From contig JANQOE010000039.1 of the NCBI GenBank assembly GCA_028279245.1, forward strand, positions 66,916 to 130,915: a stretch of DNA of 64,000 bases, read 5' to 3'. The translations under genes and the position numbers were made by a program. The DNA comes from Alphaproteobacteria bacterium (GTDB taxonomy: Bacteria > Pseudomonadota > Alphaproteobacteria > UBA6615). Shown here piece by piece: positions 11,805 to 56,430 of this stretch (positions are counted from its first letter, which is position 1; each line of letters opens with the position of its first letter). A model generated the notes under the pieces. It was given only the letters and a program-made list of their open reading frames with translations. It ran no database searches and had not been told where the DNA came from.

Positions 11805-11829
11805 GGGACTCCCTCACTTCACGCTGGGT

Positions 11830-15373: not shown

Positions 15374-15558
15374 ACACGCGAATCACGGGAGATCTGGAAG
15401 TATTCGTAGGCAAGAGTTGCGCTCCGAGACACTCCGATTAGGTATTAGATTGCCCCTTGATTGAAACCGTTGATTTTTGCCAGCGGGGTCGGCACAAGGG
15501 TCGGGGTAGCGCAAGAAAGGTAGGCGCAGGGCCGTTGGCTACTGCGCCCAGTCATCGA

Positions 15559-16332: not shown

Positions 16333-16344
16333 CCCCCCAGCGCA

Positions 16345-19177: not shown

Positions 19178-20091
19178 GAATTCTCATCACCGGCGGCACC
19201 GGCTTCATTGGCCAGCACGCGGTCGCCGCACTCGCGGATACGGAACACGAGCTGGCCATTGTCTCCAGAAACGCCCGACCCGACGAGGGTCGGACGCGCT
19301 TTGTACGCATAGATCTGCTCGATCCCGAAGCGCCTCGGTCAATGCTGCAAAGAGAACCGCCGACCCACCTGCTCCACCTCGCTTGGGAAACCGCGCACGG
19401 GCACTATTGGACCGCACCCGAAAACACGGCCTGGGCTGATGCGACCTGCAGGCTGTTGACCGACTTCTTCGAGTACGGCGGCGTGCGGGCGGTCGCGATC
19501 GGCACCTGCGCTGAATACGACTGGATGGTGCCAGGCAAGGCTGCCCTCTCTGAGTATAGCGCCAGACTGTCCGCGGATACGGCCTATGCCCGCGCGAAAC
19601 TGTCGGCCTATGAGCACGCGGAGAAGCTGCGCGCTAGTGGGGCGTCGGTGGCCTGGTGCCGGCTATTCTTCCCGTATGGGCGGTTTGAGCCCGCTGAACG
19701 CTTCATTCCCGCCGTGACCCGAGCGCTGATCCAAGGCGAACCAGCCAAGATGACCAACGGCCGGCAAGCCAGAGACTTCATGGCCGCCCGCGACGTCGGA
19801 CAAGCCTTGGCTGCCGTCCTCGCCGGCGATGTCTCAGGCGCCATCAACATCTCCAGCGGGTTTGCCACGCCATTGATCGATGTGGCCAGGGAGATCGGGC
19901 GCGCGTTGAACCGGGAGCACCTGCTGCGGCCGGGCGCGCTCCCCGGGCGTCCTGGCGACCCGGCATTCTTGGCTGGCGACAATCGGCGGCTAGCGACCGA
20001 GGTCGGCTTCACCCCTCGGATCACCCTGCCGGAAGGAATCGCAGACGCGGTCACATATTGGCGGGGCGAATTGCAGCAAACGGCACGTTAG
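19174..20091 (+). CDS. NAD-dependent epimerase/dehydratase family protein (probable NDP-sugar 4-ketoreductase)
   Basis: ORF 18937..20091; GTG 19174 overlaps upstream stop; ILITGGTGFIGQHAVAAL Rossmann motif, YxxxK (YARAK). Confidence 0.75.
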   Translation: MRILITGGTGFIGQHAVAALADTEHELAIVSRNARPDEGRTRFVRIDLLDPEAPRSMLQREPPTHLLHLAWETAHGHYWTAPENTAWADATCRLLTDFFEYGGVRAVAIGTCAEYDWMVPGKAALSEYSARLSADTAYARAKLSAYEHAEKLRASGASVAWCRLFFPYGRFEPAERFIPAVTRALIQGEPAKMTNGRQARDFMAARDVGQALAAVLAGDVSGAINISSGFATPLIDVAREIGRALNREHLLRPGALPGRPGDPAFLAGDNRRLATEVGFTPRITLPEGIADAVTYWRGELQQTAR

Positions 20092-20108
20092 TGCTAGACG
20101 GCACAGCT

Positions 20109-20891
20109 ATGTCTAATGGGGCCGGCGTGATAAGCATCGATTTTGAGGAGCAGGTCGTCATCGTGGCCGAAGACGGTGACCGGCGGGTCATCCCGCTCGC
20201 CTCACCCGAGGCCTTTGCGGCGGCGTCACGTGCGTGGCTCCGATGCGGCTGGGACGTGAAGCACGCCTATACCTTTAGCTGGCTCGGCCGCCCGATAATC
20301 CAGCTTCCCGAGGATATGGTCCGTGCCCAGGAGGCCATCTTCGCCGTTAAGCCGGACCTGATCATCGAGACTGGCATCGCCCATGGCGGCTCCCTCATTT
20401 TCTATGCGAGCCTTTGCAAGGCGATGGGGCGCGGCCGTGTCATTGGCGTGGACATTGAGATACGGCCGCACAACCGTACAGCCATCGAAGCCCACGAACT
20501 GTTCGATTACATCACGCTTTATGAGGGCAACTCCACCGACCCGCAGATCGTGAGCAAAGTCTCCGCCGATGCCGAGGGGGCCGAAACCGTGATGGTCTTC
20601 CTCGACTCCAACCACACCAAGGCGCATGTGCTGGCAGAGTTGGCAGCCTATGCCCCCCTAGTATCGGTCGGCTCTTACGTCGTTGCGGCCGACGGCATCA
20701 TGGAGCAACTCGTCGGTGCGCCAAGAAGCAGCCCCGATTGGGGAACGGACAACCCGCGGCAGGCCGCAATCGAATACACGGCGGCCAACCCCAACTACGT
20801 GATCTCCCAGCCCGACCTCACTTTCAACGAAGGTAACGTCAGTACGCCCGTAACCTACTGGCCGGACGGCTGGATCAAACGCGTCGACTAG
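20109..20891 (+). CDS. CmcI/cephalosporin-hydroxylase-family class I SAM methyltransferase (sugar O-methyltransferase-like)
   Basis: ORF 20058..20891, ATG 20109; ...PDLIIETGIAHGGSLIFYASL...VMVFLDSNHTKAHVLAEL... matches CmcI/MtfB-type rhamnosyl O-MTases. Confidence 0.7.
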   Translation: MSNGAGVISIDFEEQVVIVAEDGDRRVIPLASPEAFAAASRAWLRCGWDVKHAYTFSWLGRPIIQLPEDMVRAQEAIFAVKPDLIIETGIAHGGSLIFYASLCKAMGRGRVIGVDIEIRPHNRTAIEAHELFDYITLYEGNSTDPQIVSKVSADAEGAETVMVFLDSNHTKAHVLAELAAYAPLVSVGSYVVAADGIMEQLVGAPRSSPDWGTDNPRQAAIEYTAANPNYVISQPDLTFNEGNVSTPVTYWPDGWIKRVD

Positions 20892-20897
20892 GGCTCG

Positions 20898-21821
20898 TTG
20901 CAGATGCCGCTCGTTACGGTCGGCATGCCGGTATACAACGCCGCACCGCTACTCCCTCGGGGACTGGACTGTATCTGCAATCAGTCCTTCGAAGACATTC
21001 AGATTGTCATTTCAGACAACGCATCCACCGACGAAACACCCGACATCACCAAAGACTACGCAGCCCGAGATAGTCGAATCTCTTTACTCCGGCAATTGCA
21101 GAACGTTGGCATGATCGAGAACTTCGCCAAAGTTCTCGAAGCGGCACAAACCCCCTACTTCATGTGGCGCGCCCACGACGACACCTCGGACCTCGACTAC
21201 ATAAGGTCCCTGTACACCATACTCTCAGAAGACTCTCTGAGTGGCATGGCCGCCCCGCTTGTGGATCGCCGATCAATCGATGGGCGTATTAGCGCCAGGG
21301 CAAGGTTTCCGGAGCTCGGGCCTCACGAAACGCGGCGCCAGCGCGTCAGAAAGCTGTTGCGCACCGTTCAGGCGAGTTGGTTCTACGGCCTGTACCGCAC
21401 GGAAGAGCTTCGCGCTGCCTGGAAGCAGGTCACGACGCGTTACCCCTATATCTGGGCATTCGACCACTTGCTCCTGTTGCAGTTCGTCCTGAAAGCCCGA
21501 GTAAACGGCACAAACGATGCCAAATTCACCCAACTCGAGACCGGTGTCTCACAGGAGACCTACCGGCCCACCTCCGCCTCGAAGCAGCGGCAGATCGCCC
21601 GCTGCTTCCTCTCCTTTGCGTTGCATGAGTTGCGATCAAGCTCATCCTCGCCGACCGACCAGTTCGCTCTGGTATGGCCACTGCTCAAATACACCAACGG
21701 GAAAACCGTGAAGTACCGACGGATCGCTATAGGCATGGTCAAAGAGGTTGGCCGGATCGCCACCAGGTCGGGTGACCAGCCCAACACAAAACCACCTAAA
21801 CGCGTAACACGAAAGAACTGA
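20898..21821 (+). CDS. Glycosyltransferase family 2
   Basis: VTVGMPVYNAAPLLPRGLDCICNQSFEDIQIVISDNASTDET GT-A DxD region. Confidence 0.85.
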   Translation: MQMPLVTVGMPVYNAAPLLPRGLDCICNQSFEDIQIVISDNASTDETPDITKDYAARDSRISLLRQLQNVGMIENFAKVLEAAQTPYFMWRAHDDTSDLDYIRSLYTILSEDSLSGMAAPLVDRRSIDGRISARARFPELGPHETRRQRVRKLLRTVQASWFYGLYRTEELRAAWKQVTTRYPYIWAFDHLLLLQFVLKARVNGTNDAKFTQLETGVSQETYRPTSASKQRQIARCFLSFALHELRSSSSSPTDQFALVWPLLKYTNGKTVKYRRIAIGMVKEVGRIATRSGDQPNTKPPKRVTRKN

Positions 21822-21953: not shown

Positions 21954-23579
21954 GTGGTCAGAGAACCGATGCCAAATTCGGCCACATCTGCGTCGCCAAT
22001 CCACTGCCTGATCATCGATGATGACGAGGACGAGGTGATGCTGGTCGACTCTTGCTTGCGCGATATCCCTGATATCGCCTCGACCGTGACATGGCAGCCG
22101 AATCCCGAGAAGGCCATGGTTGAGCTTCAGTCAGGTTCGTTCAACCTCTGTTTCGTCGACTACTCACTCGGTGCGACCAACGGTTTGGAGTTCATCCAGC
22201 AGGCGGCGAGCGCCGGCGTCGGTATGCCGATGATCCTCCTCACCGGAGCGGACCATCCGGAGATCGAGGCTGCCGCCGCGGCCAGCGGTGCCGTCGATTT
22301 CGTCGCAAAGTACGATTTGTCGCCACCGACACTCGCCCGCGCCATCCGCTTCGCCGTTGCCGGCCAGAAGGAGGCGGAAGAGCTAAAGCGCAAGACGACG
22401 GAACTTGAGACCGCGGTCGAAGCGCTCGCCAATGAACGAAGCTTGCTCCAGCAGGCGATGGACCACACCAAGCATGGCATCGCCATGTTTGACGAGAAGC
22501 AGCGTCTTATCACCTCAAACGCGCGTTATCTGGAGATCTACGGGTTCTCACCGGATGTTGTCCGACCCGGAACCGACCTCACGGCCATCTTGCGCTACAG
22601 CATTTCCCTCGGGAACTATTCCCAAGAAGAGGGTCGACGCTTGTTGAAGGAACGCTCGCGACAAGCCGCATCTACCCGCCCCTCCACCTACCAGCAGCGA
22701 CTAAGCGATGGCCGAACAATCAGCGTCGATCATGCACCCATCAGCGGCGGCGGCTCCGTAACCACCTGTGAAGACATTACCGAAACACTTAAGAAGCAGC
22801 AGGAGTCGGCTGCCCTGGCCAGCAGCGCAGCTCTGGCGGATGCCGTGTTGGCCTCCAAATCGCGGTTCCTGTCAAACATGAGCCACGAGCTGCGGACTCC
22901 ATTGAACGCGATTATTGGTTTCAACGATATCTTTCGCCAACAGATCTTCGGGCCAATCGGCAGCAAACAATACGAAGCCTATGCCGAAGATATTGGCAGG
23001 AGCGCGGCAGCCCTCCTTCAGACAATCGACCAACTGCTCGACATGTCGCTGCTCTACAGCGACCAAACCGCACTCGACGAGCACGAATTCGAGCTGTCGG
23101 ACGCCCTTCAGCATGCCGTTCGTCTTCACGAGGGCGCCATCGAGGAAAAAGGCATCACCCTGAAGACGAACCTGGCTGCAGGCTTTTCCTTTTATGGGGA
23201 CGAAAACAAGATCACGCATGCCGTCGACTGTCTGCTCGACAACGCCATCAAGTTCAGCTACCCGGCCAGCAAGATCTGCGTCAACCTCGCAACAACCAAG
23301 GATAGTGGCGCACTCATTGAGATCTCAGACGCCGGTCCGGGAATACCCGCGGACCAGATATCAGATCTGCTGACACCATTCGAACAAGCGGAGGCCGCCG
23401 ATTGTCGATCCAATCACGGGTCTGGTCTGGGATTGCCCATCGCCTCGGGCTTGATCCGCCTACACGGTGGCGCTTTAGATATCTCAAGTGCGGAGGAAGG
23501 TGGTACAACCGTCCAAATCCTGCTTCCACCCGACCGGATCTCTTTCGCCGCCCGAGCGGCGGTTGGCCGCAGGAAGTAG
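21954..23579 (+). CDS. Hybrid sensor histidine kinase (N-terminal REC, PAS, HisKA, HATPase_c)
   Basis: IHCLIIDDDEDEV...D (REC), PAS core NARYLEIYGFSPDVVRPG..., H-box MSHELRTPLNAIIGF, G-boxes DAGPGIP / GSGLGL. Confidence 0.85.
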   Translation: MVREPMPNSATSASPIHCLIIDDDEDEVMLVDSCLRDIPDIASTVTWQPNPEKAMVELQSGSFNLCFVDYSLGATNGLEFIQQAASAGVGMPMILLTGADHPEIEAAAAASGAVDFVAKYDLSPPTLARAIRFAVAGQKEAEELKRKTTELETAVEALANERSLLQQAMDHTKHGIAMFDEKQRLITSNARYLEIYGFSPDVVRPGTDLTAILRYSISLGNYSQEEGRRLLKERSRQAASTRPSTYQQRLSDGRTISVDHAPISGGGSVTTCEDITETLKKQQESAALASSAALADAVLASKSRFLSNMSHELRTPLNAIIGFNDIFRQQIFGPIGSKQYEAYAEDIGRSAAALLQTIDQLLDMSLLYSDQTALDEHEFELSDALQHAVRLHEGAIEEKGITLKTNLAAGFSFYGDENKITHAVDCLLDNAIKFSYPASKICVNLATTKDSGALIEISDAGPGIPADQISDLLTPFEQAEAADCRSNHGSGLGLPIASGLIRLHGGALDISSAEEGGTTVQILLPPDRISFAARAAVGRRK

Positions 23580-23583
23580 CTCT

Positions 23584-23811
23584 CTAGGCAGACACACCCT
23601 TCGCTTGAAGCGCTTGCCGCACGGCCCCGACTGACCTGAGGCTCGTTATCTCGGGCATGGAGAACTTTACCGAGTAGGCACCTTCGATCGCCAGAACGAG
23701 TTCAAGGTGCTTCAGCGAGTCCCAGGACTTTGTATTTGCTGGGCTCGTTTCATTGCTGATCGACTCAATCGGTTCACGCAGTATGTTTGCGATCAGAGCT
23801 TCAATTTCCAT
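23584..23811 (-). CDS. Acyl/D-alanyl carrier protein-like (DltC/ACP family, 75 aa)
   Basis: ORF 23584..23979 but carrier domain starts at internal ATG ~23811: MEIEALIANILREPIESISNETSPANTKSWDSLKHLELVLAIEGAYSVKF... with DSL phosphopantetheine-attachment motif resembling DltC LDSFxxVELLLAIE. Confidence 0.7.
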   Translation of the reverse strand: MEIEALIANILREPIESISNETSPANTKSWDSLKHLELVLAIEGAYSVKFSMPEITSLRSVGAVRQALQAKGVSA

Positions 23812-23867
23812 TGTCGTCGGATCCCTATCCCTTAGAAGACTGCTTCCCGGACAGCCGCCAGCCCCAA

Positions 23868-25391
23868 TCAGAACTGATAGTAGAGGAATGTCGAATGGCT
23901 CTTTATCGATGCGATGGCTATGACAAACGCCACGGCCGTCGCCACCGCCCAGTTCGGCGATGCTCTCCAGAGCATCCACCGCCGTACCGGACTCTCTTCG
24001 GACGGTTGGGGGTCTGAACTGACCCAGTAGTTGCGCAGTATGTCCTGCGTATTCGGCAGCATCACGACAATCATCCCAAGCGCAAGTATCAAGGATAAGG
24101 CTGGAACGAGGTCCAACTGGACAATACCCGCCTGCACCAGACCGTCACCGAACAGGTAGGATACCCCCCACATGCTGGCCAATATCGTTCCGGCAACATC
24201 CAGATTCGGTGCTCGGAAGACGACCAGTGAGCTCACGACCACAGACATGGTGATCGCCCACCCGGCAAGCGGATGCAGCGTCGGTAGCTTGAACTCTCGC
24301 CAGCCATGGTTGATGGCCAACGCAAACCCATGGATCAAGCCATAGACCACCATGGTCCAACCTGCACCATGCCAAATACCCGCGATCAGGAAGGTAAAGA
24401 TGACCGGCCATGCGGCCGTTGCGAAAAAGCGGTGGACCGGACCGTACTCATTCGCCATCGCGCGGCGCAGGTTCTTCATCGCCATCGGCGTGAATAAATA
24501 GGTGGTGAAGAATCTGGTCATCGTCATATGCCACCGATGCCAGAAGTCTTGAATGCTTGTCGCCTTGAGCGGCGAGTTGAAATTGAGCGGTAGCTTTATG
24601 CCGAACAGGTATCCAAGACCGACCGCCATATCGGAATACCCGGAGAAGTCGAAATACAGCTGGAGTGTATAGCAGAGGGCTCCCACCCAGGCGGTAAGTG
24701 GTTCGATCCCCCCACCAGCGGCAACGCCGCCAAATGCCTCATTCGCAAAGGGGGCGATCGTGTCGGCGAAAACGACTTTCTTGAACATCCCCATACAGAA
24801 GATGGTCAGCCCAATGATCACCCGCGACGACGAGAACGCACTGTCGTCTCGGTCCTTCATCTGCCGGAAGAACTCGCTCTGCAGCACGAGAGGACCTGCC
24901 GTTACACAAGGGAAGAACGTCGCGAACAGAGCATAACGGTCAAAAGACGGACGTTCTGCCGTTCCATTGTAGGCCTCAACCAAGAAGCCTATCTGAATGA
25001 ACGTATAGAACGAGATCCCGACAGGAAGGATAAGGTCGAGGTGACTAAAGCCGGTTCCGGCGACCCCGTTCACTGTCTCGATGAGGAAGTTCGTGTACTT
25101 GAAATAGCCAAGAGCAATGATGTTGCCCGCCACAGCAGCAATCAACAGAAGCTTAGCCGTCGCCTGCCGGTTTCGAAGCTCAACAATTGCGTTCGCAACC
25201 GCGAAGTTCGCCAGCACTGACGCCGCCAGCACTGCAACTAGCAGAAGGCTCCAGTGCGCGTAGAAAGCGAGTGACGCGGCGGCCAGATACGGATACACGG
25301 CCCGCCAGCCACCAACTCGATGGATGATGAGAAAGCCGATATAGGCAAGCGGGAAGAAGACGAATATGAACTGAAAAGAATTGAAGACCAT
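23868..25391 (-). CDS. MBOAT family membrane-bound O-acyltransferase (AlgI/DltB-like)
   Basis: ORF 23868..25523; start refined to ATG 25391 (MVFNSFQFIFVFFPL, canonical MBOAT N-terminus); multi-TM, conserved His region ...WHRWHMTMTRFFTTYLFTP... Confidence 0.85.
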   Translation of the reverse strand: MVFNSFQFIFVFFPLAYIGFLIIHRVGGWRAVYPYLAAASLAFYAHWSLLLVAVLAASVLANFAVANAIVELRNRQATAKLLLIAAVAGNIIALGYFKYTNFLIETVNGVAGTGFSHLDLILPVGISFYTFIQIGFLVEAYNGTAERPSFDRYALFATFFPCVTAGPLVLQSEFFRQMKDRDDSAFSSSRVIIGLTIFCMGMFKKVVFADTIAPFANEAFGGVAAGGGIEPLTAWVGALCYTLQLYFDFSGYSDMAVGLGYLFGIKLPLNFNSPLKATSIQDFWHRWHMTMTRFFTTYLFTPMAMKNLRRAMANEYGPVHRFFATAAWPVIFTFLIAGIWHGAGWTMVVYGLIHGFALAINHGWREFKLPTLHPLAGWAITMSVVVSSLVVFRAPNLDVAGTILASMWGVSYLFGDGLVQAGIVQLDLVPALSLILALGMIVVMLPNTQDILRNYWVSSDPQPSEESPVRRWMLWRASPNWAVATAVAFVIAIASIKSHSTFLYYQF

Positions 25392-25396
25392 ATCGA

Positions 25397-26683
25397 CTAT
25401 CGCCTGTCTACCGGCCGTGCAACGGGCCTTCCTGCGGTGGCATGCCCCCGATAGCCATTCAGAACACGCTGGAGGCAGTCCGGGTTCGAATGTTCCGCAT
25501 CGATGTACATCTCGGCCGTACATCCAAGATCATGGGGGTTGAAACTGCCGATGACCTTCAGGCCGAAGCGCTCCGCAAACCCGACTGTCAATTGCTCGAT
25601 TTCGGCCAAACCCGCCATATAGGCCGATCCTTGAAGTGAGTCGTAGTAGATCGGGTTGAACGGCGGATGTGCCAGGTACACTTCAACGTCCCGATCCTGC
25701 AGAAACTGAAGTAGCATCTCGAACTGCGCAACGCCGGCCGAGTCGATCTTCGGCGGGTCGTTGCGGCGTTGCGCCGCAAACGCCAAGGCGCCCGATCTCG
25801 CAAACTCCCGCGTGAACAACGCGTCATGTTCCCGAGACCAAATGATCGACCCATCCGGGCGAAGTATGTCGAGGGTATCGTGCTTATCCGCGTCGGTGAC
25901 GTGCGGCAAAACAGGTGCCGCAAACCACCGTTCTACATTGTCTTTCAAGACCACAAGGGAGATCGCATTACGTAGTTGCGGCACGGGTATCAGTTCACTT
26001 ATTGGCCGCCGGTCGATGTCCAGCCGGCGCGACATATCGCGGTAGTCCGGGATCGTCGGGACCCAGAGAAAGTCGGTGCGGTCCTCTACAGGGGTGAACA
26101 GATTGTCCCTGATGGTGATGATCATTGCTTGCGGCAGACGATTGTTCCGGACGAACATCTCCGTCACCGACAGCATGTCCTCGTAGTAATCTCTGTGAAC
26201 ATGTGCATTGTACATGTTGACTTCGGGGATCAGCCCAGCATGGCCTTCCTGCCAGTGACTGGCGCCGAGGACGGCCACGTCGGGTGTCTCCGAAAGCGAA
26301 GCAATATGCTCGCGACGAAGGGCCCGGCTCTCAATGTTCAGATCAAAGGTCGCGTAACTGCGGCCCGACGCAAGTACGTCCGCCACCTCGACCGCAGTGT
26401 TCGGGTTGAACAACAGCGGCGCGAATCTGGCGTTCCCCCCAGCAACCGCGACCAGGCCAAGAACCAGGAAGATGCCGAGCAGGAACAGATACAATACCGG
26501 GTTGGCAACGATGCTTGGATCGACTTCATGAGCATCGACGATCCCGATCTTGGCGAGGTCCTCCTCGCGTCGACCGATCTCGGCCCGCGGCAACAATCGT
26601 CTGTCCGGGTGATTTTCAGAACGGAGATTGTCGTCTCCGAAGTTGGAGTCAGATGTGGACACGTCCTGCCCTTGAGTACCCAA
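25397..26683 (-). CDS. Membrane-anchored periplasmic protein, candidate DltD/AlgJ-like (SGNH-like) partner of MBOAT
   Basis: Cytoplasmic N-term, single TM PVLYLFLLGIFLVLGLVAVAGG, ~340-aa periplasmic domain with VAVLGASHWQEGH block; position immediately upstream of MBOAT mirrors dltD/algJ logic; homology not verifiable by eye. Confidence 0.5.
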   Translation of the reverse strand: MGTQGQDVSTSDSNFGDDNLRSENHPDRRLLPRAEIGRREEDLAKIGIVDAHEVDPSIVANPVLYLFLLGIFLVLGLVAVAGGNARFAPLLFNPNTAVEVADVLASGRSYATFDLNIESRALRREHIASLSETPDVAVLGASHWQEGHAGLIPEVNMYNAHVHRDYYEDMLSVTEMFVRNNRLPQAMIITIRDNLFTPVEDRTDFLWVPTIPDYRDMSRRLDIDRRPISELIPVPQLRNAISLVVLKDNVERWFAAPVLPHVTDADKHDTLDILRPDGSIIWSREHDALFTREFARSGALAFAAQRRNDPPKIDSAGVAQFEMLLQFLQDRDVEVYLAHPPFNPIYYDSLQGSAYMAGLAEIEQLTVGFAERFGLKVIGSFNPHDLGCTAEMYIDAEHSNPDCLQRVLNGYRGHATAGRPVARPVDRR

Positions 26684-26902
26684 AGCCCTGCGAGCCTAAG
26701 AAGCCATCAAAGGCTCAATGAAGCGTAAACGTTAACCTTTTGAAGGTTGTCGGTAGGGGCTAGGAATCACCCATTCGTTGGCCGCGACTTGAAGGGTCCC
26801 AAGGTCGCCAGGTCCAGGAACACACCGTACCCTAATCCTAGGAAGCCCTATGCACGTCAGGTGTCTGCAGTCCTCCGGACTTTCGACCCGTCCGATAGCC
26901 GC

Positions 26903-28867
26903 CTAATCCACTTCCTGGTGCCGCACGGGCAGGACAACACTGAAAACTGCCCCCTCGTCAAGAACGCCGGCCGCATCGATGGTGCCGCCGTGCCACTCAG
27001 CAATCTTCCGGCACGTCGCAAGGCCGATCCCCGTACCTTCATACTCATGGCGACCGTGGAGACGCTGAAATATGGTGAATATCTGGTCCTTGTATTTGTT
27101 ATCAAAACCGATGCCGTTGTCTTCGACCCGGATCTGACAATAGCCTGGTCTTTCCGCCGGCAATGCCGTCTCAACGCGAACAATCGGCTTCACATCCGGC
27201 TTGCCAAACTTCAACGCGTTCCCGATCAGGTTCTGCAGAAGCTGGCGCATTTGCGTTGGGTCAGCATCAATCTTGTGGAGTGGACCAAGGACGACCTCCG
27301 CATTGGCCTCCTCAATCCGAATCTGCAGGTCCGAGACAACTTCCGCTGCAATCTCACCAAGATCGGTCTCTTCAAACGGCTGCGCCTTTGTCGTCACGCG
27401 CGAGAAATTCAGCAGGTCGTCAATGAGCTGCCGCATCCGTCCAGCGGCATTCTGCATCCGATCCACATATAGTTTGCCTTCGTCGGGCAAATCACCGGCG
27501 AACTTCGTTGCCAACCGGCCACCAAACGCTTCGATCTTGCGGAGCGGTTCCTTGAGATCATGGGACGCGACATGCGCGAAGTCCTGGAGTTCCCTGTTCG
27601 AGATCTCAAGCTTGTGCATGTACTCTTGCACCTGCGCTTCCCGGCGCTCAAGATCCGTTATGTCCTGATAGGTCGCAATTGAGCCGCCGTTCGGCATGGG
27701 CTCATGCATGACGGCGATGACTCGCCCATCCCTCAAATACTGCTTAAGGGTTGTCCGTTCACGTTTCTTCGCTTGGTCCGGCCGCGCCGCGATAGCTTTT
27801 TTGGCATCCTCCTCCGTATAGTTCCCGATAGAGACACTGTATTCCATTATCTCTCGGAGCCTTATGCCTGGCTTAACGATCTGCGGATCAAATCCATACA
27901 TTTCGAGATAACGACTGTTACAGACCAGTAGAACCTGTTCGTCGTCGAACATGCACAGGCCCTGGATCATATTGTTTAGGGCGGTATCAAACTGGATGTT
28001 GGTTTTACGCAATTCATGCGTCATCCGCAGAATATCGAGCTCGCGCTTCTTCAACTCGGTGATGTCCGAGCGAATGCCGACAATCCCACCATCTTCTGTA
28101 CGCTTCTCGTGAACGCGTATCCAGCGACCGTCAGCCAACTGCATGTCGTAGGGCGCATCTGGGTTCTTATGCTGCTTTAGGCGCAGCTCAAAGAACTCAT
28201 CGGGATCCATGCTCCCGATGTTGAATCCACCTCGATCAACGCCAGCGCGAAGTAGATCCTCAAAGACCGCGCCTGGAAGAATCAGGTCGGAGACGTGCGA
28301 GTTATACTCAACATACTTCCGGTTGTAGAGGACCAACCGGCCCTCCGCATCATGTAGGCAAAACCCGTCCGCCATCCCCTCCAACGCGTGGGTCAAGCGT
28401 TGCCGCGCCAACTCGGCGAGGGCGCCAGCACCCAGCCGGGACGCATCCGCTGGATCGGCCGGCCGTACGGTTTCGACCAGAACACCATCTTGCAGGCAAC
28501 GGCGCGTAACGATGAGCGCCTGGCCGGCGGAAGTCGTAAACTGAAACGTCTGGACCGATCCCGGAACCAGCCGCTCCTTCGCCTCGGTCACCTGACGCTC
28601 GGCATAATCCGGATCACCGTGGCGCCGCATCATCTTGATCCGAATCAGTGTATCCAGGGCTACGCCCGGATACGCCTCCTTATCCGCATAGCGGAAGAAC
28701 GTCTTGTACTTCTCGTTGCAGGCCACCAGAGCAAGGGCCGGATCGAACACCGCGAGCCCAACATCTGCGCCCTCAAGCACGTCGGCCAGCGAGTCGAAGC
28801 TATCGGAGAACGCCGGGGAGTCGCCCAACGCAGTTGATGCGTGTTTATCCGCGTTGTCCGTTCTCAT
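26903..28867 (-). CDS. Cytoplasmic multi-PAS sensor histidine kinase
   Basis: Several PAS cores (one nearly identical to that of 21954..23579 kinase: NSRYLEMYGFDPQIVKPG), H-box ASHDLKEPLRKI, HATPase G-boxes; no TM, no REC. Confidence 0.85.
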   Translation of the reverse strand: MRTDNADKHASTALGDSPAFSDSFDSLADVLEGADVGLAVFDPALALVACNEKYKTFFRYADKEAYPGVALDTLIRIKMMRRHGDPDYAERQVTEAKERLVPGSVQTFQFTTSAGQALIVTRRCLQDGVLVETVRPADPADASRLGAGALAELARQRLTHALEGMADGFCLHDAEGRLVLYNRKYVEYNSHVSDLILPGAVFEDLLRAGVDRGGFNIGSMDPDEFFELRLKQHKNPDAPYDMQLADGRWIRVHEKRTEDGGIVGIRSDITELKKRELDILRMTHELRKTNIQFDTALNNMIQGLCMFDDEQVLLVCNSRYLEMYGFDPQIVKPGIRLREIMEYSVSIGNYTEEDAKKAIAARPDQAKKRERTTLKQYLRDGRVIAVMHEPMPNGGSIATYQDITDLERREAQVQEYMHKLEISNRELQDFAHVASHDLKEPLRKIEAFGGRLATKFAGDLPDEGKLYVDRMQNAAGRMRQLIDDLLNFSRVTTKAQPFEETDLGEIAAEVVSDLQIRIEEANAEVVLGPLHKIDADPTQMRQLLQNLIGNALKFGKPDVKPIVRVETALPAERPGYCQIRVEDNGIGFDNKYKDQIFTIFQRLHGRHEYEGTGIGLATCRKIAEWHGGTIDAAGVLDEGAVFSVVLPVRHQEVD

Positions 28868-28938
28868 CGCACCTGGTCCGCGCGGGCAAAGGTAGTCGAG
28901 ATTTGCAGGAGTTCGTCAAACAATTGTTAAGCCTACGG

Positions 28939-30243
28939 CTAGCGGACCGGCTGCAGAGAGGCCGGCAAGTGTAGGGCGATCTCCGGAAACAGCCACACAA
29001 TGAACAGCATCAAGATCATTATCAGGAAGAGCGGCGCCGCAGCCTTTGCCACGTAGAAAATGTTGTGGCCGGTCATGGACTGGATCACGTAGAGATTGAA
29101 CCCAACCGGTGGAGTGATCTGGGCAGTTTCCACCAATATGACAAGGAATACGCCAAACCAGATCGGATCGATGCCGGCCCCCCTGATCATCGGTTCAACA
29201 ATCGCCATCGTCAGGACAACCGCGGAGATCCCGTCAAGAAACATGCCGAGTATGATGTAGAACACACCTAGCAACAGCAGCAGTTCACCCTGGGTGAGAT
29301 CCAATCCGGCAATCGCTTCGGCGACACCACGGGGCACCCCCGTGAACCCCATCGAAAGAGTCAACGTGGCGGACCCGGCAAGAATGAGAGCGATCATCGA
29401 CGATGTTTTTAGCGCGCCCGTCACCCCCTCGATGAACGAAGTCAATGTCAGGCTGCCATCAAGATATGAGATGACGAGCGCGCCCAACACGCCCACCACA
29501 GCCGCCTCGGTCGCCGTAAGGAGGCCCGCGTAAATCGAACCAAGGACAGACACCACAAGAACGACAAGCGGCAGCAAAGATACAACGGAGACGGCACCAT
29601 CCGCCTGCGCCTCCTCCGGGCCCGGAAAAGAGGCTCGCCCCAAAACCGCGCTACTTGCCACGTAGATCATGAACAGTGCCGCGAGAACCAGCGCCGGACC
29701 AATGCCGGCCATGAAAAGTTTGGTAATGGACTCGTTAGTCGTCACTCCATAGACGATCAGAATGATCGACGGCGGCATCAACAAGCCGAGCGTACCAGCG
29801 CCAGCCAGGCTCCCCACGGCGAGCTGTTCCGGATACCCCCGTCGCCGCAGTTCGGGAAGGGCTATCTTACCTACTGCCGAAACTGTCGCGGCGGACGAGC
29901 CGGAGATTGCTGCGAACAGGGTACACCCGGCAATGTTCACGTGCAGCAGGCGCCCGGGAAGCCGCCGTACAATTGGGCTTAACCCGCGAAACAGGGATTG
30001 CGAGACGCTAGAGCGGGTGAGGATTTCTCCCATCCAGATGAAGAGCGGCAGGGCCACCAACGGCCAACTCGATAGAGCGCTCCAGACAGCGGTCGCCATC
30101 GCGTCAACGGCAGGTCTCGCGGTAAACAACTCGATGCCGATGAGACCCACAGCCAACAACGCCAGCCCGACCCATACGCCTGCGCCCAACAAACCGAGCA
30201 AGGCCAACAAGTAGACGGCCACAACGAGTGTGTTGCCACTCAC
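28939..30243 (-). CDS. dctM: TRAP transporter large permease subunit
   Basis: ORF 28939..30372; start refined to GTG 30243 overlapping dctQ stop; 12-TM DctM family sequence. Confidence 0.85.
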   Translation of the reverse strand: MSGNTLVVAVYLLALLGLLGAGVWVGLALLAVGLIGIELFTARPAVDAMATAVWSALSSWPLVALPLFIWMGEILTRSSVSQSLFRGLSPIVRRLPGRLLHVNIAGCTLFAAISGSSAATVSAVGKIALPELRRRGYPEQLAVGSLAGAGTLGLLMPPSIILIVYGVTTNESITKLFMAGIGPALVLAALFMIYVASSAVLGRASFPGPEEAQADGAVSVVSLLPLVVLVVSVLGSIYAGLLTATEAAVVGVLGALVISYLDGSLTLTSFIEGVTGALKTSSMIALILAGSATLTLSMGFTGVPRGVAEAIAGLDLTQGELLLLLGVFYIILGMFLDGISAVVLTMAIVEPMIRGAGIDPIWFGVFLVILVETAQITPPVGFNLYVIQSMTGHNIFYVAKAAAPLFLIMILMLFIVWLFPEIALHLPASLQPVR

Positions 30244-30773
30244 CGCCCCGCCTCGACGACGCGCGCGCCAGGTAACCCGCCGAAGAAGCGCGTGACCTGC
30301 TCCCATAGCGTTTGCCCGATGGCAACCACCAGCAAGCCCGACCCAATCGACAGACCGAGCTGCGGTATCCACAGCGGTGTCGCATCCGCGCCTTGGCTCA
30401 AGTCGCCGATCATGAACGAGATCCAGGCCAACCGGCCCATAGCAATGGCCAGAGCCCCAGCGATGACCAGACCAACTGCGAGCACCACCAACTCAACGAC
30501 ATTCCGCTGAGGGTCGCTCAATCGATCTGCAAACAGCCGGATCCGAATGTGCGCGCCCTGACGAAAAGCGTAGGCCAGGGGCAGAAAGAAGCTGTTGGCC
30601 ATGGCATAGCCGGTCAGCTCGGGAATCCCGGCTGTGGTGAGGCCCGACCAGCGCCCAATCACCTGAACGATGACGAGCCCCGCAACGCCTACCAGGCACA
30701 CCCCAGCAAGCAACGCACCGATTTCATAAAAAGCTCTGAGCCAGGTGGTCAGCCGGTCACCCATCCGAACCAC
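30240..30773 (-). CDS. dctQ: TRAP transporter small permease subunit
   Basis: 177 aa, 4 TM, positioned between dctP and dctM. Confidence 0.8.
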   Translation of the reverse strand: MVRMGDRLTTWLRAFYEIGALLAGVCLVGVAGLVIVQVIGRWSGLTTAGIPELTGYAMANSFFLPLAYAFRQGAHIRIRLFADRLSDPQRNVVELVVLAVGLVIAGALAIAMGRLAWISFMIGDLSQGADATPLWIPQLGLSIGSGLLVVAIGQTLWEQVTRFFGGLPGARVVEAGR

Positions 30774-30799
30774 ACTCGGAGATCCGGAACCGCCGCCAG

Positions 30800-31831
30800 C
30801 TACCGGTTGGTAGGCACCAGCGTCGCCGGACGCACTGGCTTGGCTGCACCGTTTCCGTTTCTGAACGTCTGCAGAATCTGCGCCCCGGACGCGCCGGCGT
30901 CAGCGAGCCATTCCTCGGCCATTTGCTGGCCGATCGAGGTCACACCGTCCTGCAGCGCCGCACCTGCTGGCTGAACCTGCATGCCATTCTCGGCCAGCAT
31001 TGTCAGGTGCTGCCCGGCGAGTTCCTCCGACCGGGACCAGCCAAACGACTCAGCCATCGCCGCCGCGCCGCGCACAACCGCCTGTGTTTCAGGATCAAGC
31101 CGATCCCACATCCGCTTGTTCACGAATACCATATTCTTCGGCAGCCAGGCCTGTAGATCGTAGAAGTGGGAAAGATGCTCCCAGACCTTGCGGTCCACCC
31201 CAGTGGCGCCGGATGTGATGAGCGAGTTCGCAACCCCGGTGGCCAGTGCCTGCGACAACTCGGCCGTCTCAATCTGAGTCGGCGTCGCCCCCATCAACTC
31301 GGCAAGACGTGATGTCGCCGGATTGTAGGCCCGGAACCTCATACCTTGCATATCCGCCACATCATCGATGGCTCGATCCGAATACAAACCCTGGGGCGGC
31401 CAAGGCGTTGCATACAAGAACACCAGCCCTTGCTTCGCCAGCTTCTCGACAATCGCCGGCTTGGATGCTTGGTAGAGCCGCCACGCGTCGTCGTAACTCG
31501 TCGCTAGGAACGGCACCGCATCGACGCCGAAGATGGCATCTTCATTCGACAGCGCGGACATAAGACGTTCGCCGATCGGCGCTTGGCCGGTCTGCACCGC
31601 CCGCTTGATCTCACCGCCAGCAAACAGCGAACCGCCGGCATGAACCACGATCTCCAACTCTCCATCAGTCGCCCGACCAACCGCCTCGGCAAACATCACC
31701 GCTGTTTGTGAATGGAAGTTCCCCGGCGCATACGCCGTCGGCATGTCCCACTTTTCGGCCGCGGCCGGCAAAGATCCAGCGGCAAACACAACGCTGCCAA
31801 GTAGAGCAGCGAAGACCCGTGCGATACCCAT
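30800..31831 (-). CDS. dctP: TRAP transporter substrate-binding protein (DctP family)
   Basis: ORF 30800..31870; start refined to ATG 31831 (MGIARVFAALLGSVVFAAGSLPAAA signal peptide, aaggaag SD). Confidence 0.85.
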   Translation of the reverse strand: MGIARVFAALLGSVVFAAGSLPAAAEKWDMPTAYAPGNFHSQTAVMFAEAVGRATDGELEIVVHAGGSLFAGGEIKRAVQTGQAPIGERLMSALSNEDAIFGVDAVPFLATSYDDAWRLYQASKPAIVEKLAKQGLVFLYATPWPPQGLYSDRAIDDVADMQGMRFRAYNPATSRLAELMGATPTQIETAELSQALATGVANSLITSGATGVDRKVWEHLSHFYDLQAWLPKNMVFVNKRMWDRLDPETQAVVRGAAAMAESFGWSRSEELAGQHLTMLAENGMQVQPAGAALQDGVTSIGQQMAEEWLADAGASGAQILQTFRNGNGAAKPVRPATLVPTNR

Positions 31832-31992
31832 TCTCTTCCTTCTTTCCAAGCTGAATACGGGCCTGAGCAAGTCGGGCGCCTGCTAGTCCGGTACGGTTAA
31901 TAGCTCACCGTTGGTTGACTACATCTTAATACTCAGCCGGTAGTCAAACCGGGCACAAAGAACTATCCGATGCCAAGCCAGGGGCTCGAAAC

Positions 31993-32958
31993 ATGTCAAA
32001 CGGGGATTCCGCCGGTTTCAGCCGTGGGGCCGTGGCTGCTCTGCTCGCGATTGGGGTTTGCTCGGCCCTTGCCGTGCCGCAACTAGCAGCACTTTTTTCA
32101 CCGCTCGTGTTTCCGGCGCTGTTCCTGCTCGTAACGCTCTCGCTGTCCCTTACGACAGATCGTCCAACGGCCATTCTCGCCAACCCGGAACCGGCTGTCT
32201 GGGGAATCATGCTCTGGCAGCTCGCCTTCCTGCCTCTCCTCGTCATCTTGATTGGTTGGGCCATCGGTTTGCCGCGCGACCTCCACCTGATGCTGCTCGT
32301 GACGGCCGCGTCGAGTTCGGTTTTTGCCGCCCCTACGATCGCCAACCACTTCCGCCTGAACGGCCGGCTCCCGATAAATGGCATGGTCGTTTCAACGTTC
32401 TTGATGCCGGTCGCCCTCCTGGTCTTCGATCAGGCACTCGAAGGCGAGGCATTGGACTTTCCAATCAAGGAATATGTATTCCGTGTCGCGCTGTTCCTGT
32501 TTCTGCCGCTCGGGATTTCGATACTCATCAACCGGCTGGTGAAGCGCCTCCCGAAGCAAGCATCTGAAACGTCGTACAACTTGCTGCATGCCGGCGCCGT
32601 CATATCACTTCTTGTCTTCGGCATCGGCATCATGGATGGCGTCCACCATCACATCCAAACAGACCCTTCCAGGGTGTTATCCCTTTTCCTGGTCGCCGTC
32701 GGCTTCGGCGTCATAGCCATTGCCGGTACAGCGTGCCTGTTTTGGTCGTTGGGGCGCGACCTGCTGCTATCCGCAATCATTCTCTCGGTCCACCGAAACG
32801 TCGGGCTCACCTACGCGGTGATTGGGACTGCGATAGCCGCCGATTTCGCAGTCTATGTGGCGATATTCCAGATCCCGATGTTCCTCTCACCATTGTTCAT
32901 TGGCTTGGGCCAAGCAGCCTACCATCGTCCCAGAAAGCCCATGGCTGAAGCCGCCTAA
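31993..32958 (+). CDS. Integral membrane transporter, bile acid:sodium symporter (BASS)/AEC-like
   Basis: ~10 hydrophobic helices, two-repeat architecture; family assignment by overall pattern only. Confidence 0.5.
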   Translation: MSNGDSAGFSRGAVAALLAIGVCSALAVPQLAALFSPLVFPALFLLVTLSLSLTTDRPTAILANPEPAVWGIMLWQLAFLPLLVILIGWAIGLPRDLHLMLLVTAASSSVFAAPTIANHFRLNGRLPINGMVVSTFLMPVALLVFDQALEGEALDFPIKEYVFRVALFLFLPLGISILINRLVKRLPKQASETSYNLLHAGAVISLLVFGIGIMDGVHHHIQTDPSRVLSLFLVAVGFGVIAIAGTACLFWSLGRDLLLSAIILSVHRNVGLTYAVIGTAIAADFAVYVAIFQIPMFLSPLFIGLGQAAYHRPRKPMAEAA

Positions 32959-32964
32959 CCGGTT

Positions 32965-34467
32965 GTGGTCGTGGCGAACCAACCAATCAGGATCCTGCTC
33001 GTCGAAGACGACGAGGACGACTACATCCTAACGCGCGGTCTCATCCAAGAGATTGATGGAACCGACAGGTTCGAGTTGCGTTGGGTGGCCGACTACAAGT
33101 CCGGCCTCGAAGCTCTCGCACGCTGCGAGGCAGACATCTGCCTCGTCGACTATTATGTCGGCGGGAAAAACGGATTGGATCTGGTGCGGGAGGCCCGGCG
33201 AAATGGCTGCGACGTGCCGACGATACTTCTGACGGGAAGGGGCGATAGAGAAATAGACATCGCTGCGATGGAAGCCGGCGCGGCCGACTACCTGGAGAAA
33301 ACCGAACTTAGCCCACGTCTCCTGGAGAGAACAATTAGATACGCCATTGCAGAAGCAAAGGACCGTCAGACAATTCTAGAGCGCGGAGCTTTACTTCAGG
33401 CAACGCTAGATTATACGGGAGCCGGTATCGCGACATTTGATCGAGATATGAACCTGCTAGCTCATAACGATAGTATTCTAAGCATGCTCGGCATGACGGC
33501 TGACAGCCCAGAACAGTCAGCTGATCAGAAAGAATCGCGCATCGGCCAGAATATCTCAACAAGCCTCGACCTGGTTCGGCACACACGCGAAGGACGCGAG
33601 ATCATCGCGCGGAGTGGCAGAGTCATAGAAGTTCGCAGCAACAAGATGCCAAACGGTGGCCTGGCAACGATCTGTATCGACATAACGGACCGAAAGAAAG
33701 CGGAAGAAATCCTGCTCAAGTCAAAGAACGAAGCGGAAGCGGCGAGCCGGGCCAAATCAGAATTCCTTGCGAATATGAGCCACGAGCTTCGCACGCCGCT
33801 CAACGCGATTATTGGTTTCACCGAAGTCATGATGGCCCATAACACATCGGTCTCGGAGGAGTCGGCGCACAGTTATCTGGGACACATCCTTGATAGCGGT
33901 AAGCACCTTCTCGCTGTTATCAATGACATACTGGATGTCTCTAAGATCGAAGCCGGCAAGTTTGAGATCGACGAAATTGAACTGGATCCCGCAGAAGTCG
34001 TACTCAGCAGCATCCGGCTAATCTCGGAGCGAGCCAAGCAGTCGAACGTCACAGTCACGACTAGTACGCAACCAAGAACCCGCGAACTCTATGCCGACGA
34101 ACGAGCCCTAAAACAGATACTTTTGAACCTGCTCTCCAACGCCATCAAGTTCACGCCTGCTGGTGGTTCCGTTTCTGTAGACCTCGTCACCAGCGACTGC
34201 GGCAGCTTGGATCTTGTCGTGGCTGACACAGGCATCGGCATTGCGGAAGCGGACATAGAGAGGGTTTTGACACCATTCTACCAGATCCAATCGACGCTCT
34301 CCCGGTCGCACCAGGGCACCGGCCTAGGACTGGCCCTAGTTAAGTCGCTGGCAGAGCTGCACGGGGGTAGCGTATCGATCGCCAGCAAGGAGGGCGCTGG
34401 CACGCAGGTGCGGGTTCGTTTTCCCAAGCATCGGGCGAACCTCGCAACGCACCGCGCCTCAGCCTAG
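32965..34467 (+). CDS. Hybrid sensor histidine kinase (N-terminal REC, PAS, HisKA, HATPase_c)
   Basis: IRILLVEDDEDDYILTRGLI...D (REC), PAS with KMPNGGLATICIDITDRK, H-box MSHELRTPLNAIIGF, G-box GTGLGL. Confidence 0.85.
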   Translation: MVVANQPIRILLVEDDEDDYILTRGLIQEIDGTDRFELRWVADYKSGLEALARCEADICLVDYYVGGKNGLDLVREARRNGCDVPTILLTGRGDREIDIAAMEAGAADYLEKTELSPRLLERTIRYAIAEAKDRQTILERGALLQATLDYTGAGIATFDRDMNLLAHNDSILSMLGMTADSPEQSADQKESRIGQNISTSLDLVRHTREGREIIARSGRVIEVRSNKMPNGGLATICIDITDRKKAEEILLKSKNEAEAASRAKSEFLANMSHELRTPLNAIIGFTEVMMAHNTSVSEESAHSYLGHILDSGKHLLAVINDILDVSKIEAGKFEIDEIELDPAEVVLSSIRLISERAKQSNVTVTTSTQPRTRELYADERALKQILLNLLSNAIKFTPAGGSVSVDLVTSDCGSLDLVVADTGIGIAEADIERVLTPFYQIQSTLSRSHQGTGLGLALVKSLAELHGGSVSIASKEGAGTQVRVRFPKHRANLATHRASA

Positions 34468-34590
34468 CAGGTTCCCGACGAAGATCTAGCGGGCTTGAAG
34501 CGTCGCGAAGTCTAGACATATCGAATTCGTTAAGCCTGTTCGGCAGATACTCAAGGGGGACCATTCAAAAGCCCCTTGGGGGTCGAGGAC

Positions 34591-34896
34591 ATGCGTTACA
34601 TCATAACCTTGATGGCCACCGCACTGGCGGTTGCGGCGTGCAAGCAACACGACGAAGTTCTTCAAACCTGGGTTGGGGCACCTCAAGCCAAGCTACTCTC
34701 AATCTGGGGCGAGCCGACAGAGACCCATGTCGCGCAGGACGGCACCAAGATCCTGGTATACTCCAGGCCCGTGAGGAGCGGCGTGATCGTGCCAAGCAGC
34801 GGCCAAAGCACCGCCGGCCCGGCCGCGTGCGAAACAGTCTTCATGCTGGAGCAAGGACGGGTCACCGGGCACACGTCGGGGGCCGGCTGCCAGTAG
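34591..34896 (+). CDS. Hypothetical lipoprotein
   Basis: ORF 34576..34896; ATG 34591 with gagga SD; MRYIITLMATALAVAAC lipobox. Confidence 0.5.
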   Translation: MRYIITLMATALAVAACKQHDEVLQTWVGAPQAKLLSIWGEPTETHVAQDGTKILVYSRPVRSGVIVPSSGQSTAGPAACETVFMLEQGRVTGHTSGAGCQ

Positions 34897-55917: not shown

Positions 55918-56382
<465 letters not shown>

Positions 56383-56430
56383 CCATTGGCTTCGATCACC
56401 CAAGAATTCAACGAAAAGAGGTAGTTAAGG

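Follow-up and report, generated by a model that had tools for sequence, protein, structure and literature searches.

In a stretch of 64,000 nucleotides of alphaproteobacterial DNA, the whole of which we call the window, three genes encode histidine kinases (HKs) that we label K1 (21954-23579), K2 (26903-28867) and K3 (32965-34467). We suggest, with a probability of roughly 0.6, that K2 and K3 represent the first and the third gene of a known cassette, consisting of a HK, a single-domain receiver (REC) of the Rcp1 type and a receiver-kinase of the architecture REC-(PAS)-HK, and that this cassette is rearranged in the window. In Alphaproteobacteria the cassette, as judged from sequence and gene order, is part of a cluster that also encodes a BASS-like transporter, a protein here named p399, an MBOAT protein, usually a ligase, and a carrier protein. 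In the lineage of the window K3 would have moved behind the transporter gene, and both the single-domain receiver and the ligase would have gone from the locus. This proposal builds on what was observed for domain content, catalytic residues (which are intact), orthologous relationships and synteny, and on the receiver being absent. As kinases the three proteins are ordinary, and the cassette is of a type already known. It is as a natural experiment that the window is of value: the small receiver has been lost with both kinases intact, which bears on the question of whether such a receiver serves as a relay or as a phosphate sink.

Domain content and relationships of the kinases

The domains of the three kinases, as called with Pfam, are as follows.

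21954-23579, plus strand: K1, with Response_reg (residues 19-120), PAS_7 (170-282), HisKA (301-365) and HATPase_c (415-527)
26903-28867, minus strand: K2, with three PAS_7 stretches (223 bits), HisKA (427-492) and HATPase_c (536-649); approximate positions in the DNA are PAS1 28448-28795, PAS2 28034-28402, PAS3 27638-27979, HisKA 27392-27589 and HATPase 26921-27262
32965-34467, plus strand: K3, with Response_reg (10-122), PAS_7 (153-248), HisKA (263-331) and HATPase_c (378-489)

These calls confirm the initial annotation, made from the sequence alone, of a REC-PAS-HK, a multi-PAS HK and a second REC-PAS-HK. The PAS_7 (PF12860) scores of 99.5 bits for K1, 223.1 bits for the three stretches of K2 and 48.4 bits for K3 all exceed the gathering cut-off of 27 bits. 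PAS_7, PAS_8 and PAS_4 are the only sensory matches of K2; Pfam reveals neither a GAF nor a PHY domain in this protein, and thus no bilin-binding PAS-GAF-PHY or cyanobacteriochrome GAF module. The receivers of K1 and K3 are N-terminal, unlike the C-terminal receiver of a classical hybrid-kinase phosphorelay. All three kinases are soluble, as had been claimed: in 19-residue Kyte-Doolittle windows the maxima are 1.21, 1.53 and 1.15, and the threshold of 1.6 is nowhere reached. The phospho-acceptor histidines are H311 (K1), H436 (K2) and H273 (K3), with H, N and G boxes in each protein, and the receivers of K1 and K3 have kept the acceptor aspartate (D69 and D62, respectively) along with the acidic pair (E14/D15 in K3), the threonine and the lysine. 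Judged by these residues, all three kinases are predicted to be catalytically intact. No NCBIfam equivalog model reaches its cut-off for any of them.

Over their whole length (530 residues) K1 and K3 are 32% identical, and K1 and K2 share 27% identity over the PAS-HK part. K2 is conserved to an unusual degree: clearly more than a hundred clusters, from Kiloniellales, Hyphomicrobiales and further Alphaproteobacteria, hold orthologues that are 55-70% identical to it over the full length. The orthologues of K3 are 41-51% identical, and those of K1 (45-55%) form about 17 clusters. A distance tree (neighbour-joining, NJ) splits a K3 clade from a K1 clade. It is K3, and not K1, that groups in this tree with the kinases following the single-domain receiver in relatives of the window.

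Among the solved structures, 8f71, an unannotated kinase, is closest to the kinase core of K2 (4e-52), followed by the bacteriophytochromes 8sgk and 8avv (about 3e-32), and by sequence K2 classifies as a sensor kinase with a phytochrome-type HisKA/HATPase transmitter. When the K2 orthologues are compared domain by domain, the mean majority frequency falls from 0.87 in PAS3 over 0.82 in DHp, 0.80 in PAS2 and 0.78 in CA to 0.56 in PAS1. PAS3, which found no match in a PDB sequence search, is hence the best-conserved part of K2, which suggests that a conserved ligand or partner is bound there. The K2 of the window carries the majority residue of its orthologues at 83-87% of the positions in DHp and PAS3, and the value for DHp (83%) argues that this kinase is not decaying.

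A conserved gene cluster in relatives

Comparative loci were found by look-ups and a genome scan. Twelve of them, mostly on contigs of metagenome-assembled genomes (MAGs), carry a K2 orthologue of at least 53% identity in a readable neighbourhood (L005, L007, L008, L009, L010, L011, L012, L013, L015, L016, L033 and L034); a thirteenth, L014, is truncated by the contig end immediately before K2 and shows no more than K2 with DctP after it. Four loci from Hyphomicrobiales and Neomegalonema (L008, L009, L013 and L015) show the cluster in one and the same order: a divergent BASS-like protein, then K2, the single-domain receiver, a K3-type REC-PAS-HK, p399, MBOAT, a ligase resembling aminoacyl-tRNA synthetases (aaRSs) and a 75-residue carrier protein.

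A K3-type REC-kinase neighbours K2 in 12 of the 12 readable loci. The single-domain receiver directly follows K2 in 11 (L005, L007, L008, L009, L010, L012, L013, L015, L016, L033 and L034), and in L011 it is found elsewhere in the cluster; the contiguous order K2-receiver-K3 is kept in L008, L009, L013, L015, L016 and L034. The transporter is likewise a constant neighbour of K2 in the relatives. p399 and MBOAT are present in 12 of 12, the contig of L033 stopping after p399, 89 codons into the next gene. The ligase was found in nine relatives; it is absent from the clusters of L012 and L016, and the L033 contig ends before the position in question. Seven loci, if the window is included, have TRAP transporter genes beside K2: the order dctPQM-K2 is shared by L005, L033 and L034, and DctP adjoins K2 in L007, L011 and L014. 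The layout of the window, in which K3 comes after the BASS-like gene and dctPQM precedes K2, is encountered in L033, the closest relative (K2 about 70-72% identical), and in L005 (67%), and both keep the receiver after K2. In L034 (K2 67%), dctPQM, K2, the receiver and K3 are contiguous.

The receiver of the relatives (146-157 residues) is of the Rcp1 type, with PDB matches to RcpB (1e-31), RcpA (2e-31) and Rcp1 (2e-30) as well as to 4zyl and to the DrBphP response regulator fused in 8avv. The trio of HK, single REC and REC-effector also occurs in Planctomycetota, Cyanobacteria, Desulfobacteria, Bacteroidota and Ignavibacteriae, where the HK core is 47-58% identical to that of K2 and the receiver 56-62% identical. 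Outside Alphaproteobacteria the sensors vary (MASE3, CHASE, multi-PAS), and the third gene encodes a REC-HK, a REC-PAS-HK, a REC-PAS-GGDEF-EAL or a REC-HK-REC-Hpt protein. In none of the loci examined does a DNA-binding regulator stand beside K2. We did not find a description of the cluster in the searchable literature, in a search that did not include the key 2010 PNAS paper on the ligase.

Two further observations concern the K3-type gene. In L011 (853-3198, minus strand) and L016 (7399-10380, plus strand) it encodes a kinase with extra C-terminal receivers, in the forms REC-PAS-HK-REC and REC-...-REC-REC, and the downstream wiring of the cassette would therefore vary by lineage. Downstream of K3 in the window lies an open reading frame (ORF) for a lipoprotein-like protein of 106 residues with a signal peptide ending in AAC (34576-34896, plus strand); it is also present near the K3-type gene in L005 (2329-2649), and no family was found for it.

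Missing receiver and rearranged gene order in the window

In the window the place of the receiver gene is taken by an intergenic gap.

26597-26902, minus strand: K2-p399 intergenic gap of 306 bp, where relatives carry the Rcp1-type receiver of 146-157 residues

A tblastn search of the whole window with the L005 receiver gave a best E-value of 0.79, and the gap contains no remnant of a receiver gene save for a marginal 16-nucleotide match (15/16, E=0.027), which corresponds to the spacer that immediately follows the receiver gene in L005. Two home-made hidden Markov models (HMMs) of REC, run on all six frames of the 64 kb, detected no receivers beyond those of K1 and K3, and Pfam scans of essentially every ORF of the window yielded no Response_reg outside these two proteins, no Hpt and no DNA-binding response regulator. 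For the 134,419-bp source contig the evidence is indirect and weak: no receiver was located on it among the 120 best homologue clusters, and many contigs with a K2 orthologue are, again indirectly, matched by a receiver contig, unlike the source contig. The initial annotation was thus correct in that no other receiver or Hpt is encoded nearby, within the window. That the lack of a cognate regulator is a feature of the system does not hold: the Rcp1-type receiver exists in 12 of 12 relatives and, among these and the window, is missing from the window only.

K3 follows the transporter gene, mem321, after a spacer of 7 bp, and between K2 and K3 lie dctPQM and mem321; MBOAT (23868-25391) and dctPQM (28939-31831) are situated between the kinases, as had been stated. 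A megablast search of 21954-34467 against plasmids returned no match. Since a scan for promoters and terminators found no more sites than in shuffled sequence, operon structure is inferred from spacing only.

By analogy with the systems compared below, K2 would sense a cytoplasmic cue through its PAS_7 domains, autophosphorylate on His436 and transfer the phosphoryl group to Asp62 of K3. The phosphorylated receiver of K3 would then alter the autokinase activity of K3, which in turn, through His273, might phosphorylate a terminal regulator encoded elsewhere. Loss of the small receiver would remove a sink or a branch from this scheme; it need not inactivate the pathway, because lhfD, its counterpart in the Lhf system, is dispensable.

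Several points weigh against such a reading of K2 and K3. The window lacks the middle gene that defines the cassette, and K2 (minus strand) and K3 (plus strand) are about 4 kb apart. K2 is without a chromophore module, so that the analogy with phytochromes rests on the transmitter and the gene order only. The sign of the control exerted by the REC domain is uncertain, because K3 has a classical HisKA core and not the HWE core of ExsG and CheS3. The synteny relies on 12 loci, mostly MAG contigs, and the terminal output regulator is absent from every cluster examined. The receivers of K1 and K3 are only 24-28% identical to the small receiver and show no special similarity to it; a kinship between them, from which a common kinase partner might have been suspected, was rejected at this level of identity. 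Finally, the receiver and the ligase may have moved elsewhere in the source genome rather than having been lost.

Genes for a proposed envelope acylation and for transport around K2 and K3

The genes between and beside the kinases are listed here.

23584-23811, minus strand: carrier protein of 75 residues with a WDSL serine motif and weak NCBIfam acyl carrier protein matches (2.6e-5)
23868-25391, minus strand: MBOAT protein, DltB-like (Pfam MBOAT 2.7e-17, 63.5 bits against a cut-off of 27)
25397-26596, minus strand: p399, bitopic, with an N-terminal transmembrane (TM) anchor at residues 33-53 (Kyte-Doolittle 2.9) and a domain of ~340 residues
28939-30243, minus strand: dctM, TRAP transporter (Pfam and gene calls)
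30240-30773, minus strand: dctQ, of the same transporter
30800-31831, minus strand: dctP, of the same transporter
31993-32958, plus strand: mem321, with 10 TM-like segments (ten hydrophobic windows) and a distant BASS fold

The module of BASS-like transporter, p399, MBOAT, ligase and carrier protein corresponds to 23584-26596 plus 31993-32958 in the window, to 12524-16763 in L005 and to 14508-18833 in L034. mem321 has no Pfam match at 1e-3, and the assignment to the BASS fold comes from a profile of 10 orthologues, which matches ASBT_NM (3zuy) with E=7.8e-5 over residues 17-283. In L010 (3314-5761, minus strand), L012 (3668-6121, minus strand) and the representatives P0369 and P0416, mem321 and p399 are fused in one ORF of about 815 residues, comprising the transporter, a low-complexity linker, a TM helix and the p399 domain; this fusion argues that the two proteins act together.

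p399 belongs to a family with 1150 representative clusters at E<=1e-3 and 66 at <=1e-30, and displays the invariant motifs GASHWQE and D-x-x-H. It falls into no Pfam family (weak DUF1574 matches were obtained for 2 of 11 orthologues), its profile found no match in the PDB, and no DltD, AlgX or SGNH model matched; a single-sequence AlphaFold model (pLDDT 37.5) was unusable. We presume that p399 is the SGNH/DltD-like partner of the MBOAT protein, with a fold assigned by inference only. In L007 (12515-14236, plus strand) a K3-like receiver (VRVLLVEDDEDDY...) is fused in frame with the cytoplasmic p399 tail, TM anchor and catalytic domain; no other REC-p399 fusion was present among 150 representatives of the family, and this one probably goes back to a deletion that removed the remainder of K3.

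The MBOAT protein also matches TIGR04091 (LTA_dltB) with 8.5e-52 and 176.6 bits, below the 375-bit cut-off. The carrier-protein gene converges on K1, with 4 bp between the stop codons, and in relatives its orthologues end the cluster. With tblastn no ligase for the carrier protein turned up in the window (best E 0.036). The ligase of the relatives matches the amino acid--[acyl-carrier-protein] ligase model NF005479 (1.4e-47, below cut-off) and also seryl-tRNA synthetase of the methanogen type; it is class II aaRS-like. Taken by its sequences, the module seems to be a Gram-negative counterpart of the Dlt pathway in which the ligase is non-homologous.

The dctPQM genes share the strand of K2 and precede it directly, the gap being 72 bp. 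The solved structures nearest to DctP are 6wgm (2.6e-94), 2pfz (3.7e-93) and 2pfy (3.2e-79). We take 2pfz and 2pfy to be Bordetella pertussis DctP6 and DctP7, crystallised with pyroglutamate, which would hint at an amino-acid-derived solute. The arrangement is not of the DctS/DctR type: K2 is soluble, and a DNA-binding response regulator is not encoded in the window. A further, isolated ORF of 147 residues (46644-47087, plus strand) matches DctP in its central part only (positions 107-199 of the 286 in the profile) and represents a TRAP solute-binding pseudogene fragment in a 1.4-kb stretch without any other gene.

The window also holds a surface-polysaccharide cluster (10659-21821) with a family 4 glycosyltransferase (GT4), a WecG/TagA-type transferase, a Wzz-GNVR-P-loop tyrosine-kinase-like protein, an NDP-sugar nucleotidyltransferase, a 4,6-dehydratase, an NDP-hexose C-methyltransferase, a 3,5-epimerase, a reductase/epimerase, a CmcI-type O-methyltransferase and a GT2, which suggests a methylated deoxyhexose as product. 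In those relatives whose flanks were annotated, such a cluster was not seen beside K2. The tie to envelope and polysaccharide functions proposed in the initial annotation is therefore supported in one part, by the synteny with MBOAT and by TRAP genes in seven loci, and finds no counterpart in the other. A P-II (GlnB/GlnK) gene followed by glutamine synthetase (55972-57840, plus strand) constitutes an ordinary, unrelated nitrogen-regulation context.

It is tempting to speculate, beyond the cassette as such, that K2, the receiver where present, and K3 are dedicated to an undescribed Dlt-like aminoacylation pathway of Gram-negative type in Alphaproteobacteria; we put this forward tentatively, as a possibility well short of an even chance. 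The aaRS-like ligase would load the carrier protein, and p399 would receive the aminoacyl group, carried across the membrane by the MBOAT protein; the BASS-like transporter, and often a TRAP importer, might take part, and the PAS_7 subclass represented by K1 and by PAS3 of K2 might sense a metabolite related to the pathway. If this is true, the role of amino-acid:carrier-protein ligases becomes testable, and the window would hold a variant of the cascade without the small receiver. The repeated linkage to MBOAT, carrier protein and ligase in any case offers a candidate physiological context for the cassette outside photobiology, and for the ligases as well.

K1 and the similarity of its PAS domain to PAS3 of K2

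It had been proposed that one PAS domain of K2 is nearly identical to that of K1, as a result of recent duplication or shuffling. The two peptides on which the proposal was based start at residue 317 of K2 and residue 189 of K1, and over the quoted stretch 21 of 37 residues (57%) are identical. At the DNA level 64 of 111 nucleotides match, with 11 of 37 at third codon positions, and the same codon is used at just 9 of the 21 conserved residues. The whole domains, PAS of K1 and PAS3 of K2, are 41% identical over 117 residues. When PAS segments are ranked against the PAS domain of K1, PAS3 of K2 comes 101st: about 100 foreign segments score better, including K1 orthologues (56-69%) and PAS3 of foreign K2 orthologues (48-55%). 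With so many foreign domains closer to K1 than PAS3 of K2 is, recent duplication or shuffling is excluded, and "nearly identical" does not describe the pair. Nor is the similarity that of a generic PAS consensus, which had been named as a possible refutation: the PAS of the K1 family and PAS3 of the K2 family agree in the residue at 35 positions that are conserved (>=80%) in both, and of these only 6 are kept in the PAS of the K3 family, 15 in PAS2 and 9 in PAS1 of K2. The PAS of K1 and PAS3 of K2 thus belong to an ancient subclass of PAS_7.

K1 combines a chassis like that of K3 with a sensor like PAS3 of K2, and it may read the same cue as K2. We treat it as an orphan paralogue of K3 that is not a fixed part of the cassette. 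In L002 its orthologue is located beside cobalamin genes and an ECF-like sigma factor, in L032 beside another TRAP system, and a paralogue in L031 (a related genome, the same as the source of L005) stands beside a NepR/EcfG-type pair. Because K1 falls into a separate clade and its orthologues occur in unrelated contexts, a circuit of three kinases is not indicated.

As regards the start of K1 (region 21954-22040), the ATG at 21969 gives a protein of 536 residues and agrees with the Logan gene call, and the 513-residue call derived from NCBI (P0001) begins inside the first strand/helix of the receiver and removes the acidic pair; the former is likely the true start, with an intact receiver. Elsewhere in the window (47766-49204, plus strand) lies the gene of an ECF sigma factor whose region 2 is PhyR_sigma2-like; its stop codon overlaps the start codon of the next gene, which encodes a protein of 310 residues with a weak zf-HC2 anti-sigma motif.

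Alternative explanations

The initial annotation envisaged a branched phosphorelay in which all three kinases act on the polysaccharide, MBOAT and TRAP genes via single-domain response regulators or Hpt proteins, which we deem rather unlikely. The resemblance of K1 to K3 in its REC/HK chassis (32%) and to PAS3 of K2 in its PAS subclass is in favour of it, as are K1 orthologues within 10 kb of the cluster (L005/L006) or adjoining mem321 (L007) and the branching documented for BphP1-AgR/ExsG; the separate clade of K1 with its unrelated neighbours in L002, L031 and L032 is not easily accommodated, a second gene of the K1 type (L031) is located elsewhere in the source genome of L005, the Wzz/glycosyltransferase cluster is not beside K2 in the annotated flanks, and the window contains no Hpt. 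What survives of the branched relay is the link between K2 and K3, with the neighbourhood kept in 12 of 12 loci and the precedent of BphP1; the inclusion of K1 does not. The underlying observations were thus largely right, save for the identity of the PAS domains, and their interpretation half right, so that the annotation as a whole is partly supported. About as doubtful is the view that K2 chiefly senses the TRAP solute, as a soluble counterpart of DctS, and controls dctPQM, its link to K3 and MBOAT being secondary. In the window, L005, L033 and L034 dctPQM directly precedes K2 on the strand that they share, and in L011 and L014 DctP (55-58% identical) adjoins K2, which would fit; however, seven K2 loci without nearby TRAP genes (L008, L009, L010, L012, L013, L015 and L016) keep the receiver, K3 and the MBOAT module, and no DNA-binding regulator accompanies K2 in any locus.

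Two simpler explanations appear more improbable still. Three independent orphan kinases could have come to lie together by chance, which is common in Alphaproteobacteria rich in kinases, and the missing partner regulator in the window, the failure to reach any NCBIfam equivalog cut-off and the behaviour of K1 as an orphan elsewhere are all compatible with this; a cluster with K2- and K3-type neighbours and the receiver in 12 of 12 relatives, and a trio that extends across phyla, are hardly expected from chance. The locus might also be a decaying remnant in which neither the K2/K3 pair nor the MBOAT module is still functional, a notion to which we assign an equally low likelihood. Two conserved genes are missing, the order is rearranged when compared with the Hyphomicrobiales/Neomegalonema arrangement, and the dctP pseudogene fragment elsewhere in the window shows that gene decay occurs. 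Yet the ORFs are full length, the H, N and G boxes and the REC residues are intact, K2 matches the majority residues at the 83-87% given above for DHp and PAS3, the ligase is absent from the clusters of L012 and L016 too, and lhfD is dispensable in the Lhf system. We favor the rearranged cassette.

Comparison with known systems

The closest parallel to the proposed K2/K3 cassette is BphP1(Agp1)-AgR-ExsG of Agrobacterium fabrum and Rhizobium NT-26, where agp1-agR-exsG form a single operon (PMC1552090). It shares (i) the order of HK, Rcp1-type receiver and receiver-kinase, (ii) the type of transmitter, (iii) the solubility of all components, and (iv) the lack of a DNA-binding regulator in the operon. 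BphP1-HK phosphorylates both AgR and Asp62 of the N-terminal receiver of ExsG, the phosphorylated receiver inhibits the ExsG autokinase, and ExsG phosphorylates ExsF, a pathway that its authors termed intrinsically branched (PMC3899027). Unlike BphP1, K2 would sense with three PAS_7 domains and has no PAS-GAF-PHY bilin module; unlike ExsG, which joins REC to an HWE core and forms hexamers, K3 carries PAS_7 and a classical HisKA core. The window, in contrast to BphP1-AgR-ExsG-ExsF, is without an AgR-type gene, its K3 is displaced, and no second receiver like ExsF is found nearby.

The Lhf system of Rhodopseudomonas palustris, BphP2/BphP3-LhfD(Rpa3017)-LhfE(Rpa3018)-LhfA, has the same layout of HK, small receiver and REC-HK. 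Its small receiver LhfD is dispensable and thought to be a phosphate sink, and the REC-HK LhfE is essential and signals to LhfA (PMC6879726). Lhf is thus a precedent for a cassette that works without the small receiver, and its REC-HK integrates a second signal. Unlike the window, it possesses an adjacent output regulator of the REC-HTH type, LhfA, with a known target, pucBAd, and LhfE, unlike K3, has no PAS domain and senses redox state through Cys262.

In Fremyella diplosiphon and other cyanobacteria, dpxABC likewise constitutes an operon of sensor HK, single-domain response regulator and hybrid HK. It is highly conserved and patchily distributed, being kept in 86 of 95 dpxA contexts, and its DpxC has zero to three PAS domains depending on the species (PMC13492139). 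In this operon light is sensed by DpxA, a cyanobacteriochrome (GAF), and phycobiliprotein pigmentation is the output, whereas the alphaproteobacterial cluster is tied to MBOAT. A further relative in architecture is found in the CheA3-CheS3-CheY3 system of Rhodospirillum centenum, where CheS3, too, combines N-terminal receivers with a PAS kinase and integrates an intracellular metabolic signal; phosphorylation of its receiver by the upstream kinase inhibits this PAS kinase (PMC4436063). It differs from K2 and K3 in its upstream kinase, which is a CheA, in the two receivers and the HWE core of CheS3, and in being encoded by a che cluster.

The neighbouring module finds its counterparts in Dlt, PatA/PatB and AlgI/AlgJ/AlgX (PMC12148441, PMC11035591), with which it has in common a DltB-like MBOAT protein and a small carrier protein. 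The topology of p399 is that of the TM-anchored extracytoplasmic partner in MBOAT-SGNH pairs, with Ser and D-x-x-H motifs (PMC12148441), and the relatives, like Dlt systems, have an ATP-dependent ligase that would load the carrier. The differences from Dlt are the class II aaRS-like ligase in place of a DltA-type enzyme, the BASS-like transporter within the module, the Gram-negative host, and a p399 that matches none of the DltD, AlgX and SGNH models.

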